This document shows, piece by piece, positions 17,092-54,381 of a DNA stretch of 64,000 bases. Where the stretch lies: assembly GCA_018062305.1 (NCBI GenBank), contig JAGOSK010000001.1, forward strand, positions 19,005 to 83,004, in the 5' to 3' direction. Under the pieces are notes generated by a model. It was not told the origin of the DNA. It was given only the letters and a program-made list of their open reading frames with translations, and ran no database searches. The DNA is from Minisyncoccota bacterium (GTDB lineage: Bacteria; Patescibacteriota; Minisyncoccia; Phycocordibacterales; CAIZLB01). A program made the translations under genes and the position numbers. Each line of letters begins with the position of its first letter. Position 1 is the first letter of the stretch.

Positions 17092-17198
17092 ATTTTATTT
17101 TAAAGATCTTCTGTTTCGTCCTTTTGGACTCATCAGTCGGAATTACATTCCGAGACAGAGAGATTTTACGGGTAATCTCGAACCGAGTGGGTTTACCA

Positions 17199-17759: not shown

Positions 17760-18524
17760 ATGAATGAAATCATCGCCTCTTTAGGTCATATAGGTCTTTC
17801 TGATAAGGAAGCTAAGATATATCTGGCTCTCCTTAAGTTTGGTGAGGCTTCTGTTAGTGATATTGCCGATGAAGCGGGTATAAAGCGCCCTACTGCATAC
17901 ATCATTTTGGATGAGCTGCGTAAAAAAGGCCTCGTGATGAAAATTCCACATGCCAAAAAAGCCCTTTTCCAAGCAAAGACACCAGACGAACTCTATGAGC
18001 AGACAGTCTCCAATATCAATCGCTTTGAGAAAGTTCTACCAAAGCTTCGATCAATGAACCCATCTAAGAAAAATATTAAAACTCTTTATTATGAAGGACT
18101 GGACGGTATGAAAGAAGCCCTATACTACAGACTTGATGATCTCAAAGGTACAACCGATGATGGCTTCTGGGCAAAGGACGATGGCACAGTAACTAAGCCA
18201 GTGATGGACCTCTTCCACAAATGGAATGCTTCTCGGGAGAAAAACAACATACTTATAAGTGGTGTTACACCAGAACATGATTCCACCTTGGAGTTTTTTG
18301 AGAAATATAAGCAATCGCATCAAATCATGAGAGTTCCCCAGACAGACTACAACTCTGATATCTCGATTGAAGTGACAGACAAGTTTGTTAGAATCATCGA
18401 TCCGCACGAATTGAAAGCAATCATCATTGAAAACGATCGTCTTTCAGAAGCACTGAAACAAATATTTAGTTTAGCTAAACGAAACTTTATTAAAAAAGAA
18501 AAAGTAGAAGATCTTTTAGGGTAA
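17760..18524 (+). CDS. TrmB-family transcriptional regulator
   Basis: N-terminal winged helix IGLSDKEAKIYLALLKFGEASVSDIADEAGIKRPTAYIILDELRKKGLV. Confidence 0.75.
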   Translation: MNEIIASLGHIGLSDKEAKIYLALLKFGEASVSDIADEAGIKRPTAYIILDELRKKGLVMKIPHAKKALFQAKTPDELYEQTVSNINRFEKVLPKLRSMNPSKKNIKTLYYEGLDGMKEALYYRLDDLKGTTDDGFWAKDDGTVTKPVMDLFHKWNASREKNNILISGVTPEHDSTLEFFEKYKQSHQIMRVPQTDYNSDISIEVTDKFVRIIDPHELKAIIIENDRLSEALKQIFSLAKRNFIKKEKVEDLLG

Positions 18525-18680
18525 GAGAATCGGTCACGCGTTAAAATTGCGGCACAATTTTCCGCGCGACCCCGCCTCCCTCGTTGCGCTTCGCCGATTA
18601 ACCCTTTATGAGATGCGTAAAAGTACCGACTCACTGCGCAACTTCAGTCCGGCTTTCGATTCTCGCTTATCCAATAGCAA
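18524..18680 (+). repeat. Copy A of a conserved structured ~155-nt element (candidate ncRNA) adjacent to tRNA-Gly
   Basis: Two conserved blocks are shared with copy B at 21606..21760: a block of about 75 nt beginning GAGAATCGGTCACGCG and a block of about 44 nt ending CCGGCTTTCGATTC. It starts on the trmB stop codon and is followed by a terminator. Confidence 0.6.
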
Positions 18681-20705: not shown

Positions 20706-21233
20706 TCATAAATATGGAAAATATTTCACTTTTATGGCTTTTATATCAGTTTTTGTACTCGCTGAGGGACATTTTTCTACCCCTTCGAGGTAAGGCTCAG
20801 AATTGTTATGCTCATTCCCATGTAGGTAAACCACAACTCCCCCAATCTCAATATCCATTTCAGACACACTAAGATCAGGACGCAGATTCAAACCAAGATC
20901 CAAAATTCCCCTATCGAGTCCAATACCCATTTCTAGCCTATTCATCAATTCCTCACGAAGCCTATATAGTTTCCGTAGCTTAGTGGAAGAGAGGTTGTCC
21001 TCAGGAAGAAAGATATCGGATTCTGCCAAAGAGCTAAAGGACGTTGCAAAATAGGTAGTCTTAACCTCTATAATATGGATCACGCCGTTCTTGTACGTAA
21101 GTATGTCTATCTCCCCTTGCTTGAGTCGTAGGTTCTTGGCTAATACCCTGTGACCTTTTAAAGTCAGAAAATGGGCAGCGACTCTCTCTCCATACGTACC
21201 TATGTCCTTTTTGTTTTTGAATATGTATTCCAT
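20706..21233 (-). CDS. YraN/UPF0102-family predicted endonuclease with a C-terminal extension
   Basis: N-terminal GERVAAHFLTLKGHRVLAKNLR...GEIDILTY...IHIIEVKT, a PD-(D/E)xK-like YraN signature. Confidence 0.65.
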   Translation of the reverse strand: MEYIFKNKKDIGTYGERVAAHFLTLKGHRVLAKNLRLKQGEIDILTYKNGVIHIIEVKTTYFATSFSSLAESDIFLPEDNLSSTKLRKLYRLREELMNRLEMGIGLDRGILDLGLNLRPDLSVSEMDIEIGGVVVYLHGNEHNNSEPYLEGVEKCPSASTKTDIKAIKVKYFPYL

Positions 21234-21556
21234 TTGAATGTTTCAAGTGTAACAATTACTGTTAAAATCCCGCTCAAAAAGATATGAAGACCTCTCCAAA
21301 AGGGCTTTCTGTTACATGTGTAACCTAAATTAGATATTTTAGGGGAGTTTTTTGATATTTATAGCTGTAAAGTTGAAATATCAATATGTGGCACGTGAAA
21401 CATATACTGAACATTATAAAGACATAAAAGCCATGGCTTTGTGTAGCTAAAATGCTATTACAACCTTATAATAAGCCATATTCTGTCGTGAATAGCCTAA
21501 AATATGATTATTTTATAAGACAGCAATAAATGTCTTTTATACACATATCCACCTAG

Positions 21557-21565
21557 TTATCCACA
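21557..21565 (+). promoter_or_regulatory. Perfect DnaA box TTATCCACA (an 8/9 box TATCCACC sits 7 bp upstream)
   Basis: Read directly. It lies in the AT-rich region upstream of element copy B. Confidence 0.4.
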
Positions 21566-21605
21566 GTTTTGTCGATATCTGTACACAGTGGGTGGGGTAG
21601 TAAGG

Positions 21606-21760
21606 GGAGAGAATCGGTCACGCGTTAAAATTGCTCCACAATTTTCCGCGCGACCCCGCCTCCCTCGTTGCACTTCGCCGATTGGGACACCGCAATAAAA
21701 TACAAAAGTACCGGCTCACTGCGCAACTTCAGTCCGGCTTTCGATTCCTACTTGTCCCAC
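21606..21760 (+). repeat. Copy B of the conserved structured ~155-nt element (candidate ncRNA) adjacent to tRNA-Gly
   Basis: Block 1 and block 2 are near-identical to copy A, with different intervening segments. It is followed by a perfect hairpin terminator. Confidence 0.6.
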
Positions 21761-21769
21761 TGTAAATAC

Positions 21770-21806
21770 AAAAGAGCGCATGTAATATGCGCTCTTTTGT
21801 ATTTAT
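21770..21806. terminator. Bidirectional intrinsic terminator (AAAAGAGCGCAT-gtaata-ATGCGCTCTTTT)
   Basis: Perfect 12-bp stem flanked by A and T runs. Confidence 0.7.
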
Positions 21807-21807
21807 G

Positions 21808-21878
21808 TGCGGGGTAAGAGAATCGAACTCTTGTCCCGTCCTTGGCAAGGACGTATTCTACCACTAAACCAACCCCGC
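21808..21878 (-). tRNA. tRNA-Gly (anticodon GCC); no encoded CCA
   Basis: Same body as the UCC isoacceptor. Anticodon arm CGTCC-TTGCCAA-GGACG. Confidence 0.9.
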
Positions 21879-21901
21879 ATTTATATTATCCACTAACCGT
21901 G

Positions 21902-21973
21902 TGCACCCACCAGGATTCGAACCTAGAATAACGGTTCCGAAGACCGTTGTGATATCCATTTCACCATAGGTGC
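21902..21973 (-). tRNA. tRNA-Arg (anticodon UCG, tentative); no encoded CCA
   Basis: Acceptor GCACCTA/TGGGTGC, anticodon arm ACGGT-CTTCGGA-ACCGT, T arm CTAGG-TTCGAAT-CCTGG. Confidence 0.7.
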
Positions 21974-22066
21974 ATATGTATTTTCAAAATACATGACAAT
22001 ACTACATGAAAATAGCAAAAAATCAAAGGTTGTATTACTATTTAAAGCACCATAAGGGCATTTTAA

Positions 22067-23617
22067 ATGAAACAGACTTCAAACAACTCAAATACGGCTA
22101 TGGATATGAAGATTTCAGATATTAATGCTGACGCTCTTACTGTTGTGCAAAAACTCCAAGAAGCAGGATATCAAGCATATCTTGTAGGGGGTTGTGTGCG
22201 AGACCTAATCATGCGAAGGACACCGAAAGATTGGGATGTCACGACTGATGCAACTCCAGATCAGATTATAGCTACATTTGAAAAGACTTTTTATGAAAAT
22301 ACGTTCGGGACGGTTGGTGTGGTTATATTAAACTCTACTGCACCAGATAGTCTAATCGACAATGGTAAAGACAGTAGGGAATCGGTCTCTAATCAGGTCA
22401 TTGAGGTTACTCCATTTAGAATTGAGTCAGAATATAAAGATGGCAGACATCCAGAGAAGGTGTCCTTTAGTACAAAACTTGAAGATGACCTTAAAAGACG
22501 GGACTTTACTATCAACGCACTTGCGTACGATCCTATAAAAGACAATTTGGTAGATCTTTTTGGTGGTATAAAAGACATTCAAGACAAAGTTATACGAGCA
22601 GTAGGGGATCCAACAGAGAGATTCAATGAAGACGGTTTGCGAGTGCTTCGAGCAGTCCGCTTCAGTGCTGAATTAGGTTTCACGATTAACAAAGAGACTC
22701 AAACAGCCCTACATGATTCATGTGAAACACTTGGAAAGATAGCCAAGGAGCGTATTCGGGATGAATTTGTAAAAATAATAATGTCAGACAGCCCAATGGT
22801 TAGTATTTTTATGTGTCAAAAGCTAGGTATACTCAAATATATAGTGCCCGAGCTCGAAGAAGGGGTGAGTACTGAGCAAAACCAGGCTCATTCATATACT
22901 GTCTTTGAACATCTCCTTCGAAGCCTACAATGTGCTGCTGATAAGAAATACCCGTTTGAAATACGAATCTCGGCATTGTTACACGATATTGGTAAGCCAG
23001 CTTCAAGACGATTTTCTACAGAGAAAAAGGACTATACCTTCTATGGTCACGAGGTGATGGGAGCAAATATGGCTAAGAAGATACTCGAACGTCTGAATTT
23101 TCCAAGAAAAACTATAGATCTAGTATACAAATTTGTCAGATGGCATATGTTTTTCTCAGATACTGAGCAAATAAGCCTCTCTGCTGTAAGAAGAATGATA
23201 GCTAATGTCGGAAGGGAAAACATCTGGGACCTTATGAATCTCCGGATTTGTGACCGTGTTGGTACAGGCAGACCAAAGGAAAACCCTTATCGACTTCGTA
23301 AGTACACGGCCATGATAGATCAGGTATTGATGGATCCAATATCAGTTTCAATGCTTAAAATTGATGGTAAACAACTTATGGAAGTGTTACACGTGGAACC
23401 TGGACCTAAAATAGGGCTTATTTTGAATGCTATTTTAGAGGAAGTGATCGAGGATCCAACCAAAAACAATACCGAAACACTAAGCATAATGGCTAAAGAG
23501 CTTTATTCTTTGGATATAGTTGAACTTAAAAACAGGGCTGACCAAGGAAAGAAACTTAGAGATAGCAAGGAAAAAGAGGTCTTGGATAGTATATTAAAGA
23601 AACATCACGTTTCATAA
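22067..23617 (+). CDS. cca: CCA-adding tRNA nucleotidyltransferase with an HD domain
   Basis: LVGGCVRDLIM...DWDV...RDFTINALAY polymerase-beta-like head, plus LLHDIGKP in the HD domain. Confidence 0.85.
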   Translation: MKQTSNNSNTAMDMKISDINADALTVVQKLQEAGYQAYLVGGCVRDLIMRRTPKDWDVTTDATPDQIIATFEKTFYENTFGTVGVVILNSTAPDSLIDNGKDSRESVSNQVIEVTPFRIESEYKDGRHPEKVSFSTKLEDDLKRRDFTINALAYDPIKDNLVDLFGGIKDIQDKVIRAVGDPTERFNEDGLRVLRAVRFSAELGFTINKETQTALHDSCETLGKIAKERIRDEFVKIIMSDSPMVSIFMCQKLGILKYIVPELEEGVSTEQNQAHSYTVFEHLLRSLQCAADKKYPFEIRISALLHDIGKPASRRFSTEKKDYTFYGHEVMGANMAKKILERLNFPRKTIDLVYKFVRWHMFFSDTEQISLSAVRRMIANVGRENIWDLMNLRICDRVGTGRPKENPYRLRKYTAMIDQVLMDPISVSMLKIDGKQLMEVLHVEPGPKIGLILNAILEEVIEDPTKNNTETLSIMAKELYSLDIVELKNRADQGKKLRDSKEKEVLDSILKKHHVS

Positions 23618-24290
23618 GAAACATAGACAGGTTGTTATAAATTTGGAGTAAAAGTACTTTTGAGTATCGATTGATGTTATTCATGAAACAGTTCCACGTG
23701 AAACAAAAAATTTTGTAACAAAAAAGACCGGCTAGATGACGACGGAACTAACAAATAGAGGAACAAGAAACCAAAGAACAATTAACATACTTAACAATTT
23801 AAAAAATTTAGCGTCAGCTAAGCCGATCTTTATGACCGGAAACCTTTTTGACAACTTATAGCTATGATTAAGGGAATAGTGGGAAGTCGAAATTCAGGCG
23901 AATTTCAAAAAAATATAAGTAGATTGGGAAATTTCCCTTCATTCTACTTCTTACTAAACCTTATCAACCTATACTGTGTCGATGTAACGAACTGGTGCCA
24001 TATCCTGCAATGCCCTGACCTGTCCTTTATTATATGTCCTTTACAATAAATGTAAATACTCTGATGTCTTTTTTATTTTGATATCATCATTTATAAAAGA
24101 CATTATCCTCGTTTTGTTTTTATGTTGAATATAAAGGACATAATGCATAAAACTCGATTGTCTTTTACAAAAAATAAATTCATAAGATTTTGAGTTATCC
24201 ACAGGCTAAAAGATTTTATTCAAAAATTGCGAAAATTGAGAGTCCATCAACATACATATGCATGCACACGCATGACCTTTATACTTATTT
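23618..24290. promoter_or_regulatory. Unusually long (673 bp) AT-rich convergent intergenic region with iterated TGTCYTTTA 9-mers and a perfect DnaA box at 24195..24203
   Basis: Read directly: at least six copies of TGTCCTTTA/TGTCTTTTA or their reverse complement, plus TTATCCACA. Confidence 0.3.
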
Positions 24291-25124
24291 TTAGATATTT
24301 ATCTCGAGCGAAATAGGGCAATGGTCTGAACCATATATCTCATGGTGTATTTGAGCATTCAAAATATTTGTCTCTTGAGTTTGATCAACAAGAAAATAAT
24401 CGATTCTCCACCCAATGTTCCTATCTCGAGCTCTACTTTTTACATCCCACCAACTATATACATCTCGGGCGTCAGGATTTTTGAATCTAAATGTATCTAT
24501 AAACCCCTCTTCGATTACACCAGTAAGCCAAGCTCTCTCTACAGGTAAAAAACCTACGTGGTTGGCATTTTCTTTAGGACGTGCGATATCAATTTCTGTA
24601 TGAGCTACATTCAAATCACCACAAAATATGACTTTTTTACCCTCGTCTTTGAGTTTTGTTACATATTTTTGAAACGCTTTATAGAACCTGAGCTTATATT
24701 CAAGGCGACTAACATCTCCTCCTCCGTTAGGAAAGTAGCAGTTTATAAGAACAAAATCCTTGAAATATAGGGCTATAAATCTACCTTCTTGGTCAATCTG
24801 TTTCGTTGTAGCCTGTTTCGTAGCAACTTGTGCTGCATCACCCTCTGCAGTTTCTGCCATTTCCACCCATAAATCAGTATCTACACGTAATGGCTGTTCT
24901 TTTGTATATACAGCAACGCCACTATATCCTTTTTTGAGTTTTGAATGGTCAAAATAACTTGTGTAACCCTCAATATTGAGCAACGCCGAATCCAATTGCT
25001 CTCTGTGGGCTTTTGTCTCTTGAAAGCAAAATATATCTGGATTTTGTGATAAAACCCAGTCGAGGCAACCCTTTTTACTCCAAGCTCTGATACCGTTTAC
25101 GTTCCAACAGATGATTTTCTTCAT
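24291..25124 (-). CDS. xth: Exodeoxyribonuclease III
   Basis: MKKIICWNVNGIRA...FCFQETK...GDLNVAH...SDHCPI, the EEP-family motifs. Confidence 0.9.
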   Translation of the reverse strand: MKKIICWNVNGIRAWSKKGCLDWVLSQNPDIFCFQETKAHREQLDSALLNIEGYTSYFDHSKLKKGYSGVAVYTKEQPLRVDTDLWVEMAETAEGDAAQVATKQATTKQIDQEGRFIALYFKDFVLINCYFPNGGGDVSRLEYKLRFYKAFQKYVTKLKDEGKKVIFCGDLNVAHTEIDIARPKENANHVGFLPVERAWLTGVIEEGFIDTFRFKNPDARDVYSWWDVKSRARDRNIGWRIDYFLVDQTQETNILNAQIHHEIYGSDHCPISLEINI

Positions 25125-25180: not shown

Positions 25181-26242
25181 TTACTTATTTCCACCACTCT
25201 GTCTACTATGAAAAGCCTTGTGGATCTCCTTGAGGTGCTTATCGGTGACATGTGTATAGATTTGGGTGGTAGAGATGTTGGCATGACCGAGAAGTGCCTG
25301 TACAGATCGGAGGTCAGCACCGTTTTGTAGTAGGTCTGTAGCAAAACTGTGTCGGATAACGTGCGGAGTTACTTTTTTAGAAATTCCCGCCTTAATTGCA
25401 TAGTATTTTACCAACCGCTCTATAGTCCTAGGGGTCAAATCAAACAATCTAGAGCTCGTCAAACTCTTATTTTTAGCCAGATATTCTTTTATACTTTCTT
25501 TAGCCATGTCAGTTAAAAACACAACACGCACTTTTTCACCTTTTCCTCTCACTGAAAACTCATTTTTCGACATATCGAGGTCGCGAGGTAGGGAACACAA
25601 CTCAGAAACACGAAGACCTGTTGAGTAGAAAAGCTCTAAAATGGCCTTATCTCTAAGTTTCTTTTGCTCATCCTTCTCTTGGCTTGGACCGCTAAGGAAA
25701 CGCTCGAGCTCTTCAGAACTGATCAAATCAAGTGATCTCTCAGGGACTTTGGCAAGCTCTATATTGTCTGCGGGAAGTGATTTTATAGAACGTCTAGTCA
25801 GGTATTTGAGAAAAGACCGTAAGGCAATCAGATAGTAATTTTGCGTTCTTTTCTTGAGAGTTTCACCATTTATGCTTGTTTTCGACTTTCGACTATGGCT
25901 TATTTCCGAGGTATTTGAAGTTATTCCTAGAGGTTTTCTATTTAGCCAAAGGCGATATTCTCGAAGTAGATCAGGGTTTAATTCTTCAGGATAGACCTCC
26001 GGAACACCCTTATTTTTTGATACAAAGTCTAGAAAAGTGCTCAAATACCTGTCGTAGTTTTCAACAGTCTTAAGCGAACGGCCCTTCTCGATTTCGATAT
26101 ATTCGAGAAAGTGACGCTTGAGCACAAGGAGAGTAAGATTTAAAGTAGAAGAAGGTGCTGAGGTTGATGCCGATGGTGTTGAAGTAGGAAGTTTGTTTTG
26201 CGACATATCGATATAAGTATACCAGACCTCTTGAACAAGCAA
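25181..26242 (-). CDS. Tyrosine recombinase, XerC/XerD family
   Basis: C-terminal HVIRHSFATDLL...LLGHANISTTQIYTHV catalytic region (R-H-R-Y). The N-terminal ~40 aa are low complexity and the start may be internal. Confidence 0.8.
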   Translation of the reverse strand: MLVQEVWYTYIDMSQNKLPTSTPSASTSAPSSTLNLTLLVLKRHFLEYIEIEKGRSLKTVENYDRYLSTFLDFVSKNKGVPEVYPEELNPDLLREYRLWLNRKPLGITSNTSEISHSRKSKTSINGETLKKRTQNYYLIALRSFLKYLTRRSIKSLPADNIELAKVPERSLDLISSEELERFLSGPSQEKDEQKKLRDKAILELFYSTGLRVSELCSLPRDLDMSKNEFSVRGKGEKVRVVFLTDMAKESIKEYLAKNKSLTSSRLFDLTPRTIERLVKYYAIKAGISKKVTPHVIRHSFATDLLQNGADLRSVQALLGHANISTTQIYTHVTDKHLKEIHKAFHSRQSGGNK

Positions 26243-40628: not shown

Positions 40629-41096
40629 ATGCGTTATCAGGTACCACAATTTATTGAGGTAGAAGACAAAATATTCGGGCCTTTTACATTCAAACAATTC
40701 GTATACATGGCAGGAGGGGCTGGTATTTGTTTTATCGCCTACCGAGCAGTCCCACTTTTTTGGGCAATTCTCATTATGCTACCAGCCGGGGGTTTTGCTG
40801 CGGCATTGGCATTCTACAGACCGAACAATAGACCGTTTATCAACACCATAGAATCTGCGTTCAACTATCTCATTACCCAAAAACTCTATATATGGAGGAA
40901 AATAGATAAAAAAGTAGAACAAAAAAGCGCCGTAGAAATACTCGAGGCGGTCAAATCTTCTATCTCAGTTCCAAAACTCTCAGAAAGTAGACTCAAAGAT
41001 CTCGCATGGAGTCTCGACATCAACGAAACGGTGTATTCAAGACAATCCGGTAAACTTCAAGGGAGAACTGATGCGCAAAGTAAAAAGACATTTTAA
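40629..41096 (+). CDS. Small two-TM membrane protein, VirB3/PrgI-like candidate
   Basis: Two adjacent hydrophobic helices (FVYMAGGAGICFIAYRAVPLFWAILIMLPAGGFAAALAF). It sits upstream of the VirB4-like ATPase, as in Gram-positive T4SS loci. Confidence 0.4.
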   Translation: MRYQVPQFIEVEDKIFGPFTFKQFVYMAGGAGICFIAYRAVPLFWAILIMLPAGGFAAALAFYRPNNRPFINTIESAFNYLITQKLYIWRKIDKKVEQKSAVEILEAVKSSISVPKLSESRLKDLAWSLDINETVYSRQSGKLQGRTDAQSKKTF

Positions 41097-41157
41097 AACA
41101 GTCTAAAGAAATATCTTATAGTTTCCAAAACAACACTTCTTACTATATAATTGCACT

Positions 41158-41808
41158 ATGGCTACAGAAGCAAACAATGCAAAACCAACACAGTCATTTG
41201 TTCCTATAAAAGAGATTCGCGATGGTATCATTGTGCTCAAAGATGGTTCACTTCGTTCTATTCTCCTTGCTTCTTCACTCAACTTTGCTCTCAAATCTTC
41301 TGAAGAACAACAATCAATTATTTTTCAATTTCAAAACTTTCTAAACTCAATTAACTTTTCCATTCAGATTTACACTCAGTCTCGAAGGCTCGATATACGC
41401 CCATACATAGCCCTCCTAGAGGAACGACTTAAGGAGCAGGTAGGGGATTTGATGAAAATGCAAACTCGAGAATATATAGAGTTTATCAAAAGTTTCACCG
41501 AGTCTACCAGTATTATGACCAAAAGCTTTTTTATAGTTGTTTCGTACTCTGCCCCAGCACTCGGAGGTACGACAGCTATAAAAAAGTCATTTTTTGGAGG
41601 GGGTGGTACAAAGAAAGAACAGGAAAAAACAACATTTGAAGAAAGTAGGAGTCAGCTCCAACAGCGAGTCGAGGTAGTGGAGCAAGGGCTCGTTCGATGT
41701 GGTATCCGTATTGCAAGCCTTGGAACAGAGGAGCTTATTGAATTGTTTTACAAAACATTCAATCCAGGGGATATAGAAAAGCCAATTCACTTAACGCAAA
41801 ATAAATAA
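41158..41808 (+). CDS. Hypothetical protein immediately upstream of the VirB4-like ATPase
   Basis: 216-aa ORF. Its stop lies 5 nt before the next start. Confidence 0.45.
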   Translation: MATEANNAKPTQSFVPIKEIRDGIIVLKDGSLRSILLASSLNFALKSSEEQQSIIFQFQNFLNSINFSIQIYTQSRRLDIRPYIALLEERLKEQVGDLMKMQTREYIEFIKSFTESTSIMTKSFFIVVSYSAPALGGTTAIKKSFFGGGGTKKEQEKTTFEESRSQLQQRVEVVEQGLVRCGIRIASLGTEELIELFYKTFNPGDIEKPIHLTQNK

Positions 41809-41813
41809 CATAT

Positions 41814-43742
41814 ATGGCATTCCTCGATTTTTTAAAACCTAAACAAACAAAGAGCAATCCTATTGCGTCAGTTCTTCCACAAGAAATCTACCAAAGTGGT
41901 GTATTGGAACTTCAAGACATCATCGCTCCATCTGCTCTAAAGGTTACACCGCGTGCTCTAAACCTCGGCGACAAGCTCGTGCGAACATTCTTTGTTATTT
42001 CATATCCTCGATTTCTTTCAGAGAGTTGGTTTGCTCCGGTTATCAACCTCGACAAGATTTTTGATATTTCTATTTTCATTCATCCTATCGACACAGCTTC
42101 AGTACTACGAACATTCCAGAAAAAAGTAGCTGAAGTACAAAGTCAGATACACATGAGAGAGGAGAAAGGGCTCGTGCGTGATCCAATGCTCGACACTGCC
42201 TACCAAGACCTCGAATCACTTCGAGACAATCTTCAGCAAGCTCAGGAAAAAATCTTTGATGTAGGGCTCTACATATCAATCTACGGAGACAGTGAGCAAG
42301 ACCTAGACAAAATCGAGTCAGAAGTGAAGTCTATTCTTGAATCAAGTCTCGTATACCTCAAGCCTGCTCTTTTCCAACAGGAACAAGGTTTCAAAAGTGT
42401 GCTTCCGATCGCTGACGACCAGCTCAACATTCACTCAAAACTTAATTCTGCGCCACTTTCGAGTGTGTTTCCATTTATTTCATTCGACCTTACTTCAGAC
42501 AAGGGTATTTTGTATGGTATCAACAGACACAACTCTTCACTTATCCTCTTTGATCGATTCTCACTTGAAAACTACAACTCTATTACTTTTGCTAAGTCTG
42601 GTTCTGGAAAATCATATACAACCAAGCTCGAAATCCTTCGATCTATGATGTTTGATACAGACGTGATAGTACTCGACCCTGAGCGAGAATATGAATATCT
42701 TGCTGAAGCTACAGGAGGACGATTCTTCAACATCTCTTTGAGTTCTGAGCACCACATCAACCCCTTTGACCTTCCTACTCCACGTGAAGACGAGGCAAGT
42801 GCCGACGTACTTCGATCAAACATTATCAACCTTGTAGGACTTTTCCGAATCATGCTTGGAGGACTTACACCTGAAGAAGATGCTATCGTAGACCGAGCTA
42901 TTACAGAAACATATGCCCTCAAAGATATCACTCCTGAGTCCAACTTTGCAGCGGTAGAACCACCACTTATGTCAGACTTCGAACTCGTACTCGCAGGTAT
43001 GGAAGGAGGGGAATCACTCGTACAACGACTCACAAAGTATACAAAGGGTACTTGGGCAGGATTTATCAACCGTCCTTCAAACGTAGACATCAACAAGAAG
43101 TTCGTGGTGTTCTCAATGCGAGACATGGAAGACGAACTCAAGCCAGTAGCGATGTATATCGTAATGCACTTCATTTGGAACCAGATTCGAAAAGAGCTCA
43201 AGCGACGACTTATGGTTATTGATGAGGCATGGTGGATGATGAAATCAGAAGATACCGCTTCTTTCCTCTATGGACTTGCAAAACGAGGACGAAAATACTA
43301 TCTAGGACTCGCTACAATCACTCAGGACGTGGAGGACTTCCTCAAGTCACCTTATGGACTACCTATTATTACAAACTCGTCTATTCAGCTTCTACTCAAG
43401 CAGTCGCCATCATCTATTGATATTGTGCAAAAGACTTTTAACCTTACCGACGAAGAAAAGTATCTACTCCTCGAGTCTGATGTGGGAGAGGGAATCTTCT
43501 TTGCTGGACTTAAACACGTTGCTATCAAGGTTATTTCTTCATATACAGAAGATCAAATCATCACATCTTCTCCATCACAGGTTTTGGATATGAAAAAGGC
43601 TAGAGCGGACCTCGCAACGAAAGGACTGGTAACAGAAGATCAGGTGAGTGGAAATATCAGCGCAAGTAATACATTTATGGATAATATGGAAGCTGAAGGA
43701 AAGAGAAACATAGCAGATATAAAAGCGGAGCAAAATCTGTAA
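41814..43742 (+). CDS. VirB4/TrbE/PrgJ-family type IV secretion ATPase
   Basis: Walker A FAKSGSGKSYT, the VirB4-typical Walker B LMVIDEAWWMM and the LGLATITQ motif. The N-terminal region resembles the Gram-positive VirB4 N-domain. Confidence 0.75.
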   Translation: MAFLDFLKPKQTKSNPIASVLPQEIYQSGVLELQDIIAPSALKVTPRALNLGDKLVRTFFVISYPRFLSESWFAPVINLDKIFDISIFIHPIDTASVLRTFQKKVAEVQSQIHMREEKGLVRDPMLDTAYQDLESLRDNLQQAQEKIFDVGLYISIYGDSEQDLDKIESEVKSILESSLVYLKPALFQQEQGFKSVLPIADDQLNIHSKLNSAPLSSVFPFISFDLTSDKGILYGINRHNSSLILFDRFSLENYNSITFAKSGSGKSYTTKLEILRSMMFDTDVIVLDPEREYEYLAEATGGRFFNISLSSEHHINPFDLPTPREDEASADVLRSNIINLVGLFRIMLGGLTPEEDAIVDRAITETYALKDITPESNFAAVEPPLMSDFELVLAGMEGGESLVQRLTKYTKGTWAGFINRPSNVDINKKFVVFSMRDMEDELKPVAMYIVMHFIWNQIRKELKRRLMVIDEAWWMMKSEDTASFLYGLAKRGRKYYLGLATITQDVEDFLKSPYGLPIITNSSIQLLLKQSPSSIDIVQKTFNLTDEEKYLLLESDVGEGIFFAGLKHVAIKVISSYTEDQIITSSPSQVLDMKKARADLATKGLVTEDQVSGNISASNTFMDNMEAEGKRNIADIKAEQNL

Positions 43743-45787: not shown

Positions 45788-47152
45788 GTGAAGCACAAAC
45801 TAATCCATAAAATAGCTTATATATTTTTTATATTGGTTTGCTTTTTAAATTCATTCCTGACTGTTTTTGCAGCAGGGGCTTATTCCGATCTTGAAGCAGG
45901 GACATATACAGCAACTATCGAAAACTTTGCAAACAGCGGAAAAACGCAAACCTTCCAGATGGTTCTTATTCCTGATATAAACGGATATCTATATTTAGAT
46001 CGTGAAAAAACCAACATTCCAATCAAAGACTATTCGGGGGATAAGGATTACTTACCCGACGAACTTACCTATAAAAACGCAAACGGAAAAGAGGTTACAT
46101 TTGATCTCAGATCCACATCAAGAATCGATAATACGAGTGGGGCTATAAAAGTTGATGGTAAAGGAAATCTCACTTCACCAACAATTACTCAGACCGAAAC
46201 AAAACCAGTGGTGACTCTCGGAGCCACCACCCCTCCCCCAAACTCAAACGCTGGCTCATACACATTCCTTGCACCACTACCGTTCTTTGGGGGTCCATCA
46301 ATAAATATTGCAGAGGGAGGACTTGCTGGGTATTTAGATGGATTGTACAAAGCCGGTATTGCTGTAGCTACCGGGTTAGCACTCATTATGATTGTTGCAG
46401 GAGGTCTTGAGTATGCATCAGCTGGTTCTGTAGGAGGGAAAGATGGGGGAAAGAGTAAGATTAAAAATGCACTCATTGGATTACTACTTGCTTTGACTTC
46501 ATTCATCATATTGCAACAGATTAATCCTGGTCTCATTCGAAATGATTTGGCAGTAGATGCCACCAAGGCAGTAGGGGGTATTACCGGGCAGACGGTGGAT
46601 TTGGTTGATTATACCAACACAACATTAGGAAATCTGTATACACAGGGTATAATTGATGGATCGTTAGGAAACAATCCTGGGTCATTTCCAGGAAGTGGCG
46701 TCTTATCTACATCTGCGGTCGCGGCACGAATAGTGCAATCTGCTAGAGCAAATCTAAATGAATCAACTTGTTTCCCTGTTACAGAATACGGAAGAAGAGG
46801 CTGTGGCTATGCTTTTGGAAAGATAATGAGCGACGCTGGTGTTAATTTTACTAACCTAAACTCAAGTTCGGTCTTATCTACATCAAACATATATAGTGTT
46901 TTAGCAACCGACCAAAGGTTTACACTTGTTTCTATAAACGATACACGAAACGCCCTTCCGGGAGATATTATTATTTCACCAACAACATCTGTGGCAACTG
47001 GTCACGTAGGAATTATTGAACAAGCTGGTGCTGGAAAAATAATATCAAACAGTAGTAATGCTGGTTCAATTCAAGATTATTTTACTGGTCAAAAATGGTT
47101 AAATTATTACGGAGGAAAAGGATTAAAAACTTATATTTTTAGATATCGATAA
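45788..47152 (+). CDS. Secreted protein with a VirB2/pilin-like double-helix segment and a C-terminal CHAP/NlpC-P60-like hydrolase domain
   Basis: Signal peptide. Central segment AGIAVATGLALIMIVAGGLEYASAG...ALIGLLLALTSFIILQQ, two hydrophobic helices split by a charged loop. C-terminus has Cys in RRGCGYAF and His in TGHVGII. Confidence 0.5.
   Translation: MKHKLIHKIAYIFFILVCFLNSFLTVFAAGAYSDLEAGTYTATIENFANSGKTQTFQMVLIPDINGYLYLDREKTNIPIKDYSGDKDYLPDELTYKNANGKEVTFDLRSTSRIDNTSGAIKVDGKGNLTSPTITQTETKPVVTLGATTPPPNSNAGSYTFLAPLPFFGGPSINIAEGGLAGYLDGLYKAGIAVATGLALIMIVAGGLEYASAGSVGGKDGGKSKIKNALIGLLLALTSFIILQQINPGLIRNDLAVDATKAVGGITGQTVDLVDYTNTTLGNLYTQGIIDGSLGNNPGSFPGSGVLSTSAVAARIVQSARANLNESTCFPVTEYGRRGCGYAFGKIMSDAGVNFTNLNSSSVLSTSNIYSVLATDQRFTLVSINDTRNALPGDIIISPTTSVATGHVGIIEQAGAGKIISNSSNAGSIQDYFTGQKWLNYYGGKGLKTYIFRYR
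46225..46607. repeat. 383-bp segment 100% identical to 47720..48102 (copy 1)
   Basis: Compared base by base. It encodes the pilin-like segment in both genes. Confidence 0.9.
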
Positions 47153-47174: not shown

Positions 47175-48617
47175 ATGTATATACGAAATCTACTTTTAGT
47201 TTTTATACTAGTATTTAATTTTTTATTGCCTTCTTTTACGTATTCTGCAGTAGCAGTAGGAAATCTGGTTAAATTGCAAAGTGCGAACGAGGTGTCTGAG
47301 GTTTCTATTGAAAAAAGCTACTACACCCCCGGGGCAGACCAGAGCAAAGCTACAAACTTCCAATTTATATATCAAAAGACTGCAGCTGATAACTATCAAC
47401 TTTCACAGGTCTTCGTACAAGATAGTAAGACTGGAGCGTTTGTAGACTCGACGTCTAAGTTCACAGAACAAATTCAGCGACAACCTCAATTTGAAGTTGT
47501 ATCAAAACAGGATATGTATCAGTACAAAATAGGTGCTCGAGATTTTCAGGAGGAAATTGCCCAAAAACAACTAAACACAACAGCATCTGTTAATAGTAAT
47601 ACAAACCCCGAGTTAGGTTTTAGGGATGGAACGAACCCAGATGATATTTTTAGAACCACAATGAATAATCTTCCGGGTAATACAGTAGGAAACCCTGTAG
47701 CAGTAGTACCTTCAACAAGCACCACCCCTCCCCCAAACTCAAACGCTGGCTCATACACATTCCTTGCACCACTACCGTTCTTTGGGGGTCCATCAATAAA
47801 TATTGCAGAGGGAGGACTTGCTGGGTATTTAGATGGATTGTACAAAGCCGGTATTGCTGTAGCTACCGGGTTAGCACTCATTATGATTGTTGCAGGAGGT
47901 CTTGAGTATGCATCAGCTGGTTCTGTAGGAGGGAAAGATGGGGGAAAGAGTAAGATTAAAAATGCACTCATTGGATTACTACTTGCTTTGACTTCATTCA
48001 TCATATTGCAACAGATTAATCCTGGTCTCATTCGAAATGATTTGGCAGTAGATGCCACCAAGGCAGTAGGGGGTATTACCGGGCAGACGGTGGATTTGGT
48101 TGCTGGAGGGGGTACAATAAATCAAATAATCCCTCCGGGACAACCAGGTAGTTATGTCTTAGCAAACAATGAAAACCCTTCAACAGGAACAGTTTTTAGT
48201 AATTATTCAAGTTTAAAACAATTATTAAATAGCCTTCCAAGTGGACCGAGATCTACAGATGGAAGTCTTATTTTTACAAATTATTGGAACGGAGATACAA
48301 ATACAAATCAACAGCGAGGAAACAACTGCAACCTTTTGGTATCTGGCTCAGTAGCACTCTCACCAGACCTTATATCTAGATATAATCCAAAAAAAGGGGC
48401 AGCAGTATATGTAAATGGTTTATTGGTTGGCTACTTTGACGACACAACAGGTGCAACAACACTGGGATATGTTGGAGGAACTCTTATTAGAAATACTATA
48501 GATATATATGATCCCAACCGAACTCTTGGATCAGTTCTTAAAAAAATGCCTCCAAATAGTTGGTATTTAGTATTTGGAACACAAAGAGCTCAAACACCAA
48601 ACCCTTGTCCTCGATAA
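47175..48617 (+). CDS. Secreted protein with the same VirB2/pilin-like segment and unrelated N- and C-terminal domains
   Basis: Signal peptide and the identical 127-aa cassette. The C-terminal domain is of unknown function. Confidence 0.5.
   Translation: MYIRNLLLVFILVFNFLLPSFTYSAVAVGNLVKLQSANEVSEVSIEKSYYTPGADQSKATNFQFIYQKTAADNYQLSQVFVQDSKTGAFVDSTSKFTEQIQRQPQFEVVSKQDMYQYKIGARDFQEEIAQKQLNTTASVNSNTNPELGFRDGTNPDDIFRTTMNNLPGNTVGNPVAVVPSTSTTPPPNSNAGSYTFLAPLPFFGGPSINIAEGGLAGYLDGLYKAGIAVATGLALIMIVAGGLEYASAGSVGGKDGGKSKIKNALIGLLLALTSFIILQQINPGLIRNDLAVDATKAVGGITGQTVDLVAGGGTINQIIPPGQPGSYVLANNENPSTGTVFSNYSSLKQLLNSLPSGPRSTDGSLIFTNYWNGDTNTNQQRGNNCNLLVSGSVALSPDLISRYNPKKGAAVYVNGLLVGYFDDTTGATTLGYVGGTLIRNTIDIYDPNRTLGSVLKKMPPNSWYLVFGTQRAQTPNPCPR
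47720..48102. repeat. 383-bp segment 100% identical to 46225..46607 (copy 2)
   Basis: Compared base by base. Confidence 0.9.
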
Positions 48618-51646: not shown

Positions 51647-52993
51647 TTGTTCATTATGGATAGCAAAACTTTATGGGATTCTGTTTTAGTAAAGATTGAG
51701 ATTGATGTTACTAAAGCTACGTTTTCTACTTGGTTTAAAGATATCTACATCTCTAAGATTGATTCAGGTACAGTATATCTCGCTGTTCCAAACACTTTCG
51801 TCAAAGACTGGCTTACAAAAAGATTTCACAAGCAGATTCTAGAGAATCTAAGGACACTCCTTGAGTCTGTTCGATCTATTGAATATATTATTGCCCCTAT
51901 CAACAAAAAGAAAGAGGATTTTGTGACAGAAATACCTAGTCCAAACAAAGAATTACCACTAAATTCACTTTATATTGATCCAAGTGACAACCTTAACCCT
52001 CGATATACATTCGAAACTTTTGTTGTAGGACCCTTCAACGAGCTTGCATACGCTGCTTCACAAGCAATTATTAAAAAACCTGTTGCTTACAACCCACTTT
52101 TCTTTTATGGAAACACAGGACTCGGTAAAACACACCTCATGCAAGCAGTAGGAAACCACATTAAAAATCACCACAAAGAGAAGCGTATTCATTATGTAAC
52201 TTCTGAGCGTTTTACTATCGACTACATCAACTCAGTTCAATCAAACAAGGTAAATAATTTCAAAGAGAAGTACCGTAAGTATGATGTGTTTATTATGGAC
52301 GACATACAATTTCTTTCAAACAAGGAGAAGACGCAGGAGGAACTTTTTCACCTCTTCAACTACATGTACGACAGCAACAAGCAGATTATCTTTTCATCAG
52401 ATGTACACCCAAACTATCTGCAAAACCTAGAAGATCGCCTAAAATCAAGGTTTTTAGCGGGTATGATCATTGATATTTCACCACTTGATACCGAATCAAA
52501 GATTGCTATCCTCCAGACAAAATCTCAGATGAACAACTTCAACCTCCTACCAGAGGCGGCTTACTATATAGCTTCTATCGTCCATGGGAGTATCAGAGAA
52601 CTTGAAGGAACTCTCAATGCTGTTATTTGCCAATCACAACTCAAAGGGAGAGATCTTTCATTAAATGAAATCAAACAACTAACAAAAGATTCTACCAAAC
52701 CGCAAAAAACAATCTCAGTAAAAGATGTTGTGAAAGCTGTATCAGCTTTTTATAATATTGAAGAAGACAGTATCTACAATAAAACAAGGAGGCAAGAGGT
52801 TGTGAAGCCAAGACAACTCACGATGTATATATTAAGAGAGGATTATAATATTTCTTTTCCCTCTATAGGACAAAAACTTGGTAATAGAGATCACACAACA
52901 GTAATGCACTCATGCGATAAAATTAAAAACGAAATAAAAACAAACCCAGAACTTATAAATGAAATAAATCAAATAAGAGCCCTTATACAATAA
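51647..52993 (+). CDS. dnaA: Chromosomal replication initiator protein DnaA
   Basis: AAA+ Walker A GNTGLGKTHL, Walker B IMDDIQF, and the C-terminal DNA-binding domain (GQKLGNRDHTTVMHSC). Confidence 0.9.
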   Translation: MFIMDSKTLWDSVLVKIEIDVTKATFSTWFKDIYISKIDSGTVYLAVPNTFVKDWLTKRFHKQILENLRTLLESVRSIEYIIAPINKKKEDFVTEIPSPNKELPLNSLYIDPSDNLNPRYTFETFVVGPFNELAYAASQAIIKKPVAYNPLFFYGNTGLGKTHLMQAVGNHIKNHHKEKRIHYVTSERFTIDYINSVQSNKVNNFKEKYRKYDVFIMDDIQFLSNKEKTQEELFHLFNYMYDSNKQIIFSSDVHPNYLQNLEDRLKSRFLAGMIIDISPLDTESKIAILQTKSQMNNFNLLPEAAYYIASIVHGSIRELEGTLNAVICQSQLKGRDLSLNEIKQLTKDSTKPQKTISVKDVVKAVSAFYNIEEDSIYNKTRRQEVVKPRQLTMYILREDYNISFPSIGQKLGNRDHTTVMHSCDKIKNEIKTNPELINEINQIRALIQ

Positions 52994-53274
52994 AGGACAT
53001 TTTTATTTGTGGATAAGTCTGTGGATAGTGTGTATATATCGTTAAAATTTCTGTGAATAAGTCTGTTTATAAAAATGTATAATTTGGGAATAAAAGGTGT
53101 AAAAATCACTTATTCAAAAAGTTATTAAAAGTTATTAAAAAACAATCCACAATTTAACTTCAAAAAATATTTTATTTTGAGTCTATTTTTATCCAAATTT
53201 TAGAGTTATCCACTTTTCCACCACCCTAATAGTAGTAATAGTTTTTAATTTAAAAATAAGATAAGATACATACA
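52994..53274. promoter_or_regulatory. oriC-type region between dnaA and dnaN
   Basis: DnaA boxes TGTGGATAA (53029), TGTGGATAG (53041), TGTGAATAA (53074) and TTATCCAC (53226). The AAGTTATTAAA 11-mer occurs twice in tandem. Very AT-rich. Confidence 0.6.
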
Positions 53275-54381
53275 ATGAAACTAGAAACAATCAGAGAACG
53301 TCTAGTCGACGCAATACAGAAAGCTGAAAAGGTCACTAGTAAGAACGCAACCTTACCTGTCCTTAAGTGTGTCCTTTTGGAAGCAAAGGACAATAGTCTA
53401 CTAATAAGGTCAACAAACCTCGATATAGGACTAGAGATAAAAATACCCGTGAAGGTTCAAGAAGAGGGGTCTACGGCTATACCTGGAAATATCCTTTCAA
53501 ACTTCATTTCCCAGTTGGGTGGAGAAAAGTCTATTACCCTTGAGTCAAAGGATGGTACCTTATCTGTAAATTCATCTAAAAACAGTACAACTATTAAATC
53601 CTTTGCTACTGACGATTATCCGACTATTCCAAAAGTTAATGAAGATACCTCTAAAAGCTTCAAAATTAGCGCTACAAGCTTGATTTCTGGTTTAAAGGCG
53701 GTTTGGTACAGTTCAGCTACTTCGACTATTAAACCGGAGCTTTCTAGTGTTCGGATGTATCCTCTTGATGGAAACCTAGTTTTTGTAGCAACTGATGGTT
53801 TTCGTCTTGCTGAAAAGCAGATCCCGGCTAAAAACCTCCCTGATTTTGTTCATGTCTTGATTCCAGTTCGTAATGCTGCTGAGATAATACGTATTTTTGA
53901 TGGAATTGATGAGGAAATCACTGTTTTTATTGATGATAATCAAATTGCTGTGGTTTCAAGTGATATTTATCTCATTTCTCGTACTATAGAGGGTAATTTT
54001 CCTGATTATAAGGCGATTATTCCTAAAGAGTTTGTGACAGAAGCAGTGATACTAAAGCAAGATCTCTCAAATGCACTTAAAATAAGTACTATTTTTAGTG
54101 ATGCATTCTTCCATGTGAAGTTTTTGGTTAATCCTGGTGAAAAAAAACTGCAAATTACTACTAAAAACAATGAGATTGGAGAGAGTTCAACAAGTATAGT
54201 AGCAACTCTTTCTGGTCAAGATATAGATATTAACTTCAATTATCGATATATAAACGATGCTATGGTTACCTTGAACTCAGATAGTCTTAGTTTTTCATTT
54301 AGTGGAAGTAATAAACCTCTCGTTATAAAATCAGTAGGAGATTCTAGTTTTACATATCTTGTGATGCCTATGAATCGATAA
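53275..54381 (+). CDS. dnaN: DNA polymerase III beta sliding clamp
   Basis: 368 aa. The N-terminus MKLETIRERLVDAIQKAEKV...LPVLKCVLLEA is typical of DnaN. Confidence 0.9.
   Translation: MKLETIRERLVDAIQKAEKVTSKNATLPVLKCVLLEAKDNSLLIRSTNLDIGLEIKIPVKVQEEGSTAIPGNILSNFISQLGGEKSITLESKDGTLSVNSSKNSTTIKSFATDDYPTIPKVNEDTSKSFKISATSLISGLKAVWYSSATSTIKPELSSVRMYPLDGNLVFVATDGFRLAEKQIPAKNLPDFVHVLIPVRNAAEIIRIFDGIDEEITVFIDDNQIAVVSSDIYLISRTIEGNFPDYKAIIPKEFVTEAVILKQDLSNALKISTIFSDAFFHVKFLVNPGEKKLQITTKNNEIGESSTSIVATLSGQDIDINFNYRYINDAMVTLNSDSLSFSFSGSNKPLVIKSVGDSSFTYLVMPMNR

Follow-up and report, generated by a model that had tools for sequence, protein, structure and literature searches.

A candidate structured RNA gene, with a DnaA box and repeated 9-mers at its predicted promoter, in the cca-xth spacer of Paceibacteria

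The initiator DnaA also acts at promoters, among them those of sda and dnaA in Bacillus subtilis and of mioC, dnaA and nrdAB in Escherichia coli, and regulators such as CtrA, MtrA, ArcA and Spo0A bind next to DnaA boxes. The Candidate Phyla Radiation (CPR), or Patescibacteria, makes up a large share of bacterial diversity, with genomes of about 0.5-1 Mb that contain very little noncoding DNA. To our knowledge, almost nothing is known of how these bacteria regulate their genes. Here we describe a 673-bp spacer (positions 23618-24290) between convergent cca-like and xth-like open reading frames (ORFs) in a 64,000-nt stretch of DNA from a Minisyncoccota bacterium (contig JAGOSK010000001.1 of assembly GCA_018062305.1), referred to below as the window. 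We put a probability of about 0.7 on the reading that this spacer is an independent minus-strand transcription unit for an unannotated, structured noncoding RNA (ncRNA) of ~300 nt.

The locus shares with known DnaA-regulated promoters an origin-proximal position and a consensus box that precedes a sigma-70-type promoter by a fixed distance. It differs from them in its product, which would be a structured ncRNA and not a protein, and in a second, unrelated array of 9-mers (TGTCYTTTA) that lies alongside the box. Moreover, the box in the window stands ~170 bp upstream of the predicted start, not at about -50. Like datA and DARS of E. coli and the DnaA-box clusters of B. subtilis, the locus offers conserved, origin-proximal boxes outside oriC together with a motif for an accessory protein; unlike them, the spacer holds a single box, embedded in a promoter.

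The candidate RNA and its predicted parts are as follows.

23720-24021, minus strand: candidate ncRNA gene of ~301 nt, with its 5' end placed at about 24021/24020 and its 3' end at the U-run 23720-23725
23980-23994, minus strand: first pyrimidine box, CAGUUCGUUACAUCG, the counterpart of a GYUCUUU(N)ACAUCG box found class-wide after the 5' hairpin
23850-23980, minus strand: long central hairpin, GAUAAGG...CCUUAAUC, with the conserved apical loop CUACUUAUAUUUUUU
23726-23828, minus strand: 3' domain, in which stems A and B close a U-rich loop, followed by the U6 run at 23720-23725
23822-23828 with 23726-23732, minus strand: stem A, GAUCGGC with GCCGGUC (general form GAYYGGC/GCCGGUC)
23812-23820 with 23733-23744, minus strand: stem B, UAGCUGACG with CGUCGUCAUCUA

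At the DNA level, the spacer aligns with loci whose cca is 76-82% identical, and the RNA block is conserved in relatives in which cca is only 66-82% identical. Long invariant blocks in the alignment span 23720-24045, with additional motifs to the right. The predicted start falls about 7 nt after the -10 hexamer, at AGGUCAGGG, and the conserved block of the RNA terminates in GCCGGUCUUUUUU. Using nhmmer and a covariance model, we recovered an element of ~270-380 nt in ten species; beyond these ten, both the nhmmer iteration and the covariance model stall. An unannotated small RNA locus was one of several possibilities raised by an earlier, sequence-only reading of this DNA, and it is supported by the promoter, the covarying RNA and the terminator-like end described below.

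From a structure-blind MAFFT alignment of seven sequences, RNAalifold predicts 52 pairs, 12 of which show compensatory change. When the alignment is extended to ten sequences, 92.5% of the pair cells are paired, compared with 83.7% in shuffles and 34-58% for slid partners. Compensatory changes on both sides occur in 21 of the 52 pairs, versus 11.2 ± 2.0 in shuffles (0 of 500 reach 21), in a test in which related sequences can exceed shuffles even without structure. Most of these changes fall in the central hairpin (helices 1-6), on which the minimum free energy (MFE) and centroid folds agree; both folds leave the pyrimidine box unpaired.

The 3' domain is predicted to adopt the same fold when the sequence from each of the ten species is folded alone, and the invariant UUGUUCUUUGGUU (23769-23781) sits in its U-rich loop. 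Stem A covaries: it reads GACUGGCGC/GCGCCAGUC in L093 and GCCGACC/GGUCGGC in L010, and extends to 13 bp in L011 (L-numbers are labels of the compared loci of relatives). In 10 of 10 species, a covarying stem of 7-13 bp runs directly into U5-7 and encloses an insert of ~60-100 nt, longer in L011. The strand assignment is favored by 36 G-U cells against 14 A-C cells. The U-run follows the terminal stem on the minus strand only, and no conserved promoter was found on the opposite side of the RNA block.

Around and upstream of the predicted start lie the following elements.

24029-24056, minus strand: sigma-70-type promoter, with the -35 hexamer TTTACA at 24051-24056, a 16-nt spacer and the -10 hexamer TATAAT at 24029-24034
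24021-24029 and 24035-24043, plus strand: two direct copies of TGTCCTTTA, which straddle the -10 hexamer and the predicted start
24065-24073 (plus strand, TGTCTTTTT), 24094-24102 (minus), 24132-24140 (minus) and 24159-24167 (plus): upstream 9-mer copies
24195-24203, plus strand: perfect DnaA box TTATCCACA, within the conserved block AGTTATCCACAGGCTAAA

The promoter, TTTACA-N16-TATAAT, matches the consensus at 11 of 12 positions, and both hexamers are invariant in the closest relatives. Five exact copies of TGTCYTTTA occur in the spacer, at 24021 (+), 24035 (+), 24094 (-), 24132 (-) and 24159 (+), and a sixth copy at 24065-24073 carries one mismatch. The sequence-only reading had counted at least six copies at 24041-24170; the array is real, with the count corrected to five exact copies plus one near-copy and the span to 24021-24167. 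The direct pair at 24021-24043, with copies 14 bp apart, is invariant in the four closest relatives. The last two upstream copies form TAAAGGACA-N7-TGTCCTTTA in L092, L095 and L097, and stand 18 nt apart in the window, 11 more. Over the whole window, TGTCYTTTA occurs 10 times against an expectation of 2.15 ± 1.42, and 0 of 100 shuffles reach 10. The perfect DnaA box reported at 24195 is indeed there. Perfect boxes number only four in the whole window, and no one-mismatch box accompanies this one in the spacer. Each of the ten species with the element has one or more perfect boxes upstream of the RNA.

The same arrangement recurs across the class. Motif densities were determined in 70 related loci (741 kb) and gap architecture was counted in 70 cca-xth gaps. 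The 9-mer occurs at 5.1 per kb inside the gaps and 0.26 per kb outside them, a ~19-fold difference that exceeds chance across species. Perfect DnaA boxes, 52 of them in the 70 gaps, occur at 1.42 per kb inside and 0.078 per kb outside. A strict architecture is present in 46 of the 70: TTATCCACA is followed after 3-4 or 13-15 nt by TGTCCTTTACA, with the TTTACA of the latter in the -35 role, and finally by a -10. This TTTACA lies 16-18 nt before a TAnnnT hexamer, and the unit usually occupies the xth-proximal end of the gap. The class-wide promoter consensus is TTATCCACA-N-aaTGTCCTTTACATGTCTTTTA...TAtAAT...CAGA. The two spacing classes between the DnaA box and TGTCCTTTACA, 3-4 and 13-15 nt, are one helical turn apart. 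Among the 9-mers themselves, copies in the same orientation favor spacings of 11-12 bp, and inverted pairs favor 9 and 19 bp. In many lineages, two direct 9-mers span the -35 and spacer (TGTCCTTTACATGTCTTTTA), and an inverted copy often abuts the DnaA box. Enriched, conserved throughout the class and helically phased, the 9-mers behave in general terms as protein-binding sites would, in line with what the sequence-only reading had supposed.

The RNAs predicted in these gaps also have features in common. They open with CAGAYYAG and continue into a hairpin whose stems vary between lineages but keep their pairing. After this 5' hairpin comes a single-stranded GYUCUUU box, often followed by ACAUCG, and the RNAs finish with ...CAAACCGC...GCGGUUUU. 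The 5' hairpin and GYUCUUU box were found together in 44 gaps, the box 25-110 nt from the predicted start. In at least eight species (L046, L047, L048, L069, L074, L024, L061 and L044), the whole promoter and RNA unit is inverted and cca-proximal. These units read in the cca direction and still lie between cca and xth, and the promoter module flips along with the RNA. Its inversion as a whole shows that the unit is self-contained.

When metagenomes were scanned for TTATCCACA-N2-20-TGTCCTTTA, there were 120 hits, with spacings that peak at 3-4 and 13-15 bp; no fewer than 74 of them adjoin cca, xth or xerC. Seven of the 120 lie beside dnaA, all in one lineage, and most of the others are evident chance matches in coding DNA.

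We considered and set aside several other roles for the 9-mer. It is rare outside the gap and a module at 21531, which speaks against a general promoter element. As an origin motif it fares no better: the dnaA-dnaN gaps of four relatives have not kept exact copies, and the two closest show degenerate versions at most. Matches inside cca at fixed positions are coding artifacts that reflect the conserved codons ATA-AAG-GAC-AAA. In its direct-repeat form, the 9-mer presumably resembles sites of the Pho-box/OmpR family, and we take this as a lead only. The E. coli Pho box, bound by OmpR/PhoB-family response regulators, is CTGTCATAAAACTGTCAT. Likewise, many relatives of the window have a pair of TGTC direct repeats with a period of 11 bp that overlap the -35 or take its place, and ~7-10 bp separate the end of the pair from the -10 (TGTCCTTTACATGTCTTTTA-N7-TAtAAT). 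However, the repeat here is TGTCCTT and not CTGTCAT, inverted copies are common, and the direct copies in the window are 14 bp apart and flank the -10. A link to a Pho regulon was rejected, as other 9-mer clusters (L032, L025) adjoin a YraN/NERD gene and not phosphate genes.

Several observations count against an RNA gene of this kind, in addition to the behavior of shuffles noted above. By MFE, the minus-strand RNA does not outperform its shuffles (z = 0.10), and the plus strand has z = -2.76. A terminal stem with a ~90-nt insert is atypical for an intrinsic terminator, and a simple terminator scan found no canonical hairpin, because the terminal stem encloses this large insert. We infer from the sequence both that the RNA is transcribed and where it starts and ends. 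Similarly, the consensus box is the single feature from which DnaA binding is predicted, and the window ORFs that were scanned include no cognate response regulator as a candidate to bind the 9-mers. Finally, homology of the RNA in the other ~60 gaps would follow from position, promoter architecture and short motifs, and not from any single alignment.

The main DNA-level alternative depends on where replication starts. The raw cumulative GC skew has its minimum at 21-25 kb, where the gene strands also switch. Because gene orientation confounds raw skew, we turned to third codon positions (GC3 and AT3). A change-point at 53 kb lowers the residual sum of squares over the window from 205.7 to 136.8 for GC3 and from 112.9 to 73.6 for AT3, and one at 22-26 kb brings no gain (196.8-200.6 and 112.6-112.9, respectively). 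The 53-kb position corresponds to the dnaA-dnaN intergenic region (52994-53274), which has one perfect and four one-mismatch DnaA boxes within 200 bp and looks like the true oriC. Its core is the following.

53203-53270: oriC core, TTATCCACT-TTTCCACCACCC-TAATAGTAGTAATAG-AT-rich, in which TAATAGTAGTAATAG is DnaA-trio-like; conserved in four relatives

The GC-rich part between TTATCCACT and TAATAGTAGTAATAG is also given as CCACCACCC.

These results bear on the alternative that the spacer acts as a DnaA site at the DNA level, either a second or relic origin or a locus like datA or DARS, with the 9-mers as accessory sites and the conservation of the RNA incidental. Such a site would fit the retention of a perfect DnaA box in nearly every species' gap, the recurrence of the 9-mer beside DnaA boxes at 21531-21565 and near the oriC boxes at 52991-53028, and the module at 21531-21565, whose three tandem box-like sites (TTATACACA, ATATCCACC and TTATCCACA) are like the box pair of the oriC core in relatives. 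The cca locus also lies within a cluster of parS-like sites, ~25-29 kb from dnaA in two species, and the minus strand carries most genes left of ~21 kb, the plus strand most of those between 26.7 and 54 kb. However, the GC3 and AT3 change-point is at 53 kb, and it is the dnaA-dnaN gap that has 5-6 boxes and a core of box, GC-rich segment, TAGTAGTAATAG and AT-rich segment conserved in four relatives; the relic or second origin suggested by the sequence-only reading is therefore not borne out. The spacer has no trio or unwinding element after 24203. Its one DnaA box falls short of the three or more close boxes expected of a titration locus and is phased to the -35 element. One box set at a constant helical phase relative to a downstream -35 suggests control of a promoter more than a cluster for titration, and the earlier idea of DnaA titration or reactivation is weak for the spacer. 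Nor do DNA sites account for 300 nt of conservation with compensatory changes, and on balance we regard this alternative as unlikely.

Housekeeping ncRNAs (6S RNA, RNase P RNA, signal recognition particle (SRP) RNA and transfer-messenger RNA (tmRNA)) resemble the candidate in size class (~300 nt), a strong and constitutive-looking promoter, clade-wide conservation and a fixed neighborhood, and the transcript could be a highly diverged member of one of these families that Rfam models miss. Diverged RNase P RNAs of CPR genomes are on record and are detectable only at very low RF00010 scores (PMC8172020), which is why we retain this explanation at a low probability. The window contains rnpA, and an RNase P RNA must therefore exist somewhere in the genome. 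Yet the candidate matches no Rfam sequence or structure and lacks the hallmark motifs of these families. At the gathering threshold, Rfam searches of the window and 13 loci returned only tRNAs and a hammerhead, all elsewhere. At E ≤ 5-10, there was no spacer or gap match in 21000-25000, the spacer, six whole loci of relatives or the L046 gap; nothing appeared at E ≤ 10 in the 673-nt spacer or in the gap of a GC-richer relative, and no family in 19 whole loci of relatives. ARAGORN, applied to the window and to the 70 gaps, found nothing, and no tmRNA in the gaps. The RNase P CR-I motif GAAAGTC[CT] is in 0 of 70 gaps, CR-I-like and CR-V-like motifs never occur together, and SRP (GGAAGCAG) and tmRNA (...CCACCA) hallmarks are at background level. 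The layout is also different, with a 5' hairpin, a single-stranded GYUCUUU box, a long central hairpin and a closed U-rich 3' domain; in the predicted folds the two ends of the RNA stay unpaired, whereas a 6S or RNase P RNA would need them to pair. We consider a disguised housekeeping RNA quite improbable. A different possibility assigns the 9-mers to the adjacent xerC-like recombinase, as arm or core sites, and makes the promoter and RNA unit invertible, phase-variable or dif-like. The gap and the recombinase gene stay in synteny all through the class, TAAAGGACA-N7-TGTCCTTTA has a recombinase-core-like geometry in some species, and the unit is reversed in at least eight. Against this, the geometry is variable, with inverted pairs at 0, 7, 9, 10 and 23 nt and direct copies at 11-12 bp in many lineages, and nine contigs from nearly identical strains keep one colinear order and show no inversion polymorphism; for these reasons a recombinase-site role is very unlikely. 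In addition, the 9-mer copies in the window do not flank both promoter hexamers, the same 9-mer stands beside DnaA boxes at other loci, and ~29 kb from oriC would be the wrong place for a dif site. A small protein encoded in the spacer, or a pseudogene in decay there, is scarcely credible. A 41-aa ORF (23736-23861) does appear in Prodigal-type gene calls for the window and sister contigs, and ATGACGACGG is conserved, but ATGACGACGG is the complement of RNA stem B. In close relatives the ORF ranges from 15 to 41 aa and differs in frame and stop, the frame in which the invariant AAAGAACAA is read changes between species, and no ORF family recurs in 62 gaps.

We return to the reading of the spacer as an RNA gene with its own promoter. 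A literature search found no published description of a CPR ncRNA at the cca-xth locus.

The pairing of 9-mer and DnaA box that the sequence-only reading had noticed near 21520-21566 is genuine, with TGTCTTTTA at 21531 and TTATCCACA at 21557. In this module (21531-21565, TGTCTTTTATACACATATCCACCTAGTTATCCACAG), a 9-mer overlaps three tandem DnaA-box-like sites, the boxes covering 21537-21565. This deeply conserved module recurs, with its 26-nt start-to-start spacing unchanged, in over 20 species, beside the tRNA-Gly/Arg cluster that lies upstream of cca, and the box pair TTATACACA-t-ATCCAC resembles the oriC-core pair of relatives. From its motifs, this module is a candidate DnaA-titration or regulatory site, and a better candidate for that role than the spacer.

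To the left of the inferred 53-kb origin, ~25 consecutive genes (26764-50180) are on the plus strand. They would therefore be transcribed head-on to the leftward fork, which is unusual in a small genome.

The left end of the spacer contains a further element, which belongs to a larger group.

23690-23705: parS-like 16-bp palindrome AGTTCCACGTGAAACA, with one mismatch to TGTTNCACGTGAAACA
21239-21254, 21387-21402, 22714-22729, 23385-23400 and 23690-23705: parS-like cluster within 2.5 kb around cca

Allowing up to two mismatches, the window has five matches to TGTTNCACGTGAAACA, all between 21239 and 23705, where 0.25 would be expected. The 219 parS-like sites of ~80 loci concentrate between -3000 and +300, counted from the cca stop, and relatives carry such sites in the first ~300 bp past that stop. 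Some intragenic sites at fixed positions in cca fall on conserved codons (LHVEP) and may reflect coding constraint. A strain variant that is otherwise more than 99% identical (L002:3464-3500) has a 36-bp insertion at ~23705-23706, between the parS-like site and the U-run of the RNA, which delimits two elements and marks a non-functional linker. As at parS/ParB sites, the 23690-23705 palindrome is one mismatch from TGTTNCACGTGAAACA and part of a tight, origin-proximal cluster conserved across species; in contrast, it takes up little of the spacer and has no relation to the 9-mers. The suggestion of a partition site thus holds for the palindrome and its five-site cluster and fails for the 9-mers, whose motif is different. 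None of the 30 window ORFs scanned has a ParB domain match. Judging from the clustering, these sites probably mark the chromosome centromere region, ~29 kb from oriC.

The genes that surround the spacer are the following.

22067-23617, plus strand: cca-like ORF with PolyA_pol head, HD and tRNA_NucTran2_2 domains
24291-25124, minus strand: xth-like ORF with an Exo_endo_phos domain
25181-26242: xerC-like tyrosine recombinase ORF, ~1 kb from the spacer

The top homologs of the cca product are annotated as Pacebacteria, Taylorbacteria or Paceibacterota, and identical copies of the xth protein occur on GCA_017993115.1 and eight metagenome contigs. These flanking proteins place the window in the class Paceibacteria of the CPR/Patescibacteria. 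Farther along, the window contains rpmH-rnpA-yidC on the minus strand, followed by dnaA (51647-52993) and dnaN (53275-54381). Of 80 Paceibacteria loci compared at the species level, 72 have cca and xth as convergent neighbors, followed by xerC, rpsO and an NYN-domain gene. The gap between them almost always measures 260-750 bp, and a single one of the 80 loci has no gap; the region is conserved in relatives. The persistence of such a gap in genomes of ~0.7 Mb implies function. ORF boundaries and the ORF inventory also confirm a 673-bp spacer with no credible ORF. The longest are of 61, 53 and 41 aa, and none of the three is kept in relatives; across 62 gap inventories no ORF family recurs, and some gaps lack any ORF of 30 aa or more.

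Other features of the window are given here for completeness. A GC-rich element of ~155 nt is present in two copies, at 18517-18672 and 21601-21757, each adjoining a tRNA-Gly gene. The copies are ~83% identical over 177 nt, with two blocks at 91-93%, and have no Rfam match; relatives essentially lack the element, the exception being a weak match in L014. At 21765-21800 there is a bidirectional terminator hairpin. The hammerhead match is to a type III ribozyme at 17108-17161 on the minus strand, scoring 50.0 bits against the Rfam gathering threshold of 48.5. An exact 300-nt direct repeat (46225-46524 and 47720-48019) in the adjacent ORFs 45788-47152 and 47175-48617 suggests a recent tandem gene duplication or gene conversion. 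Lastly, PrgI-family and TraG/VirB4-like P-loop genes at 40629-43742 resemble a type IV secretion or conjugation-like cluster.

Taken by its sequence elements, the spacer is a compact module comprising a parS-like site, a putative minus-strand ncRNA gene and the predicted promoter region of that gene. The TGTCYTTTA 9-mers would be sites for a sequence-specific DNA-binding protein that overlap the core promoter, and the DnaA box would let the replication initiator modulate the RNA promoter. RNA output may in this way be coupled through DnaA to replication and cell-cycle status. The exposed GYUCUUU pyrimidine boxes are the likely working surface of the RNA and could bind a protein or purine-rich AAAGARC targets. 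Transcription of the proposed class-wide ncRNA is probably wired to DnaA and to a 9-mer-binding factor. More tentatively, we propose a new Paceibacteria RNA family of ~250-400 nt in the parS region, with a promoter controlled by DnaA and the 9-mers, that might serve as a riboregulator reporting or controlling replication and segregation.

A ~300-nt structured RNA kept between cca and xth across the class, with a near-consensus promoter, a phased DnaA box and its own 9-mer array, would be a strong contender for a core RNA, regulatory or housekeeping, overlooked by annotation and Rfam. Even if the RNA proves not to be expressed, the locus would still be among the most conserved noncoding DNA modules of these genomes. 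Together with the cluster of parS-like sites and the oriC core, the code of DnaA box and TGTCYTTTA offers testable entry points to cell-cycle control in organisms that are hard to culture.

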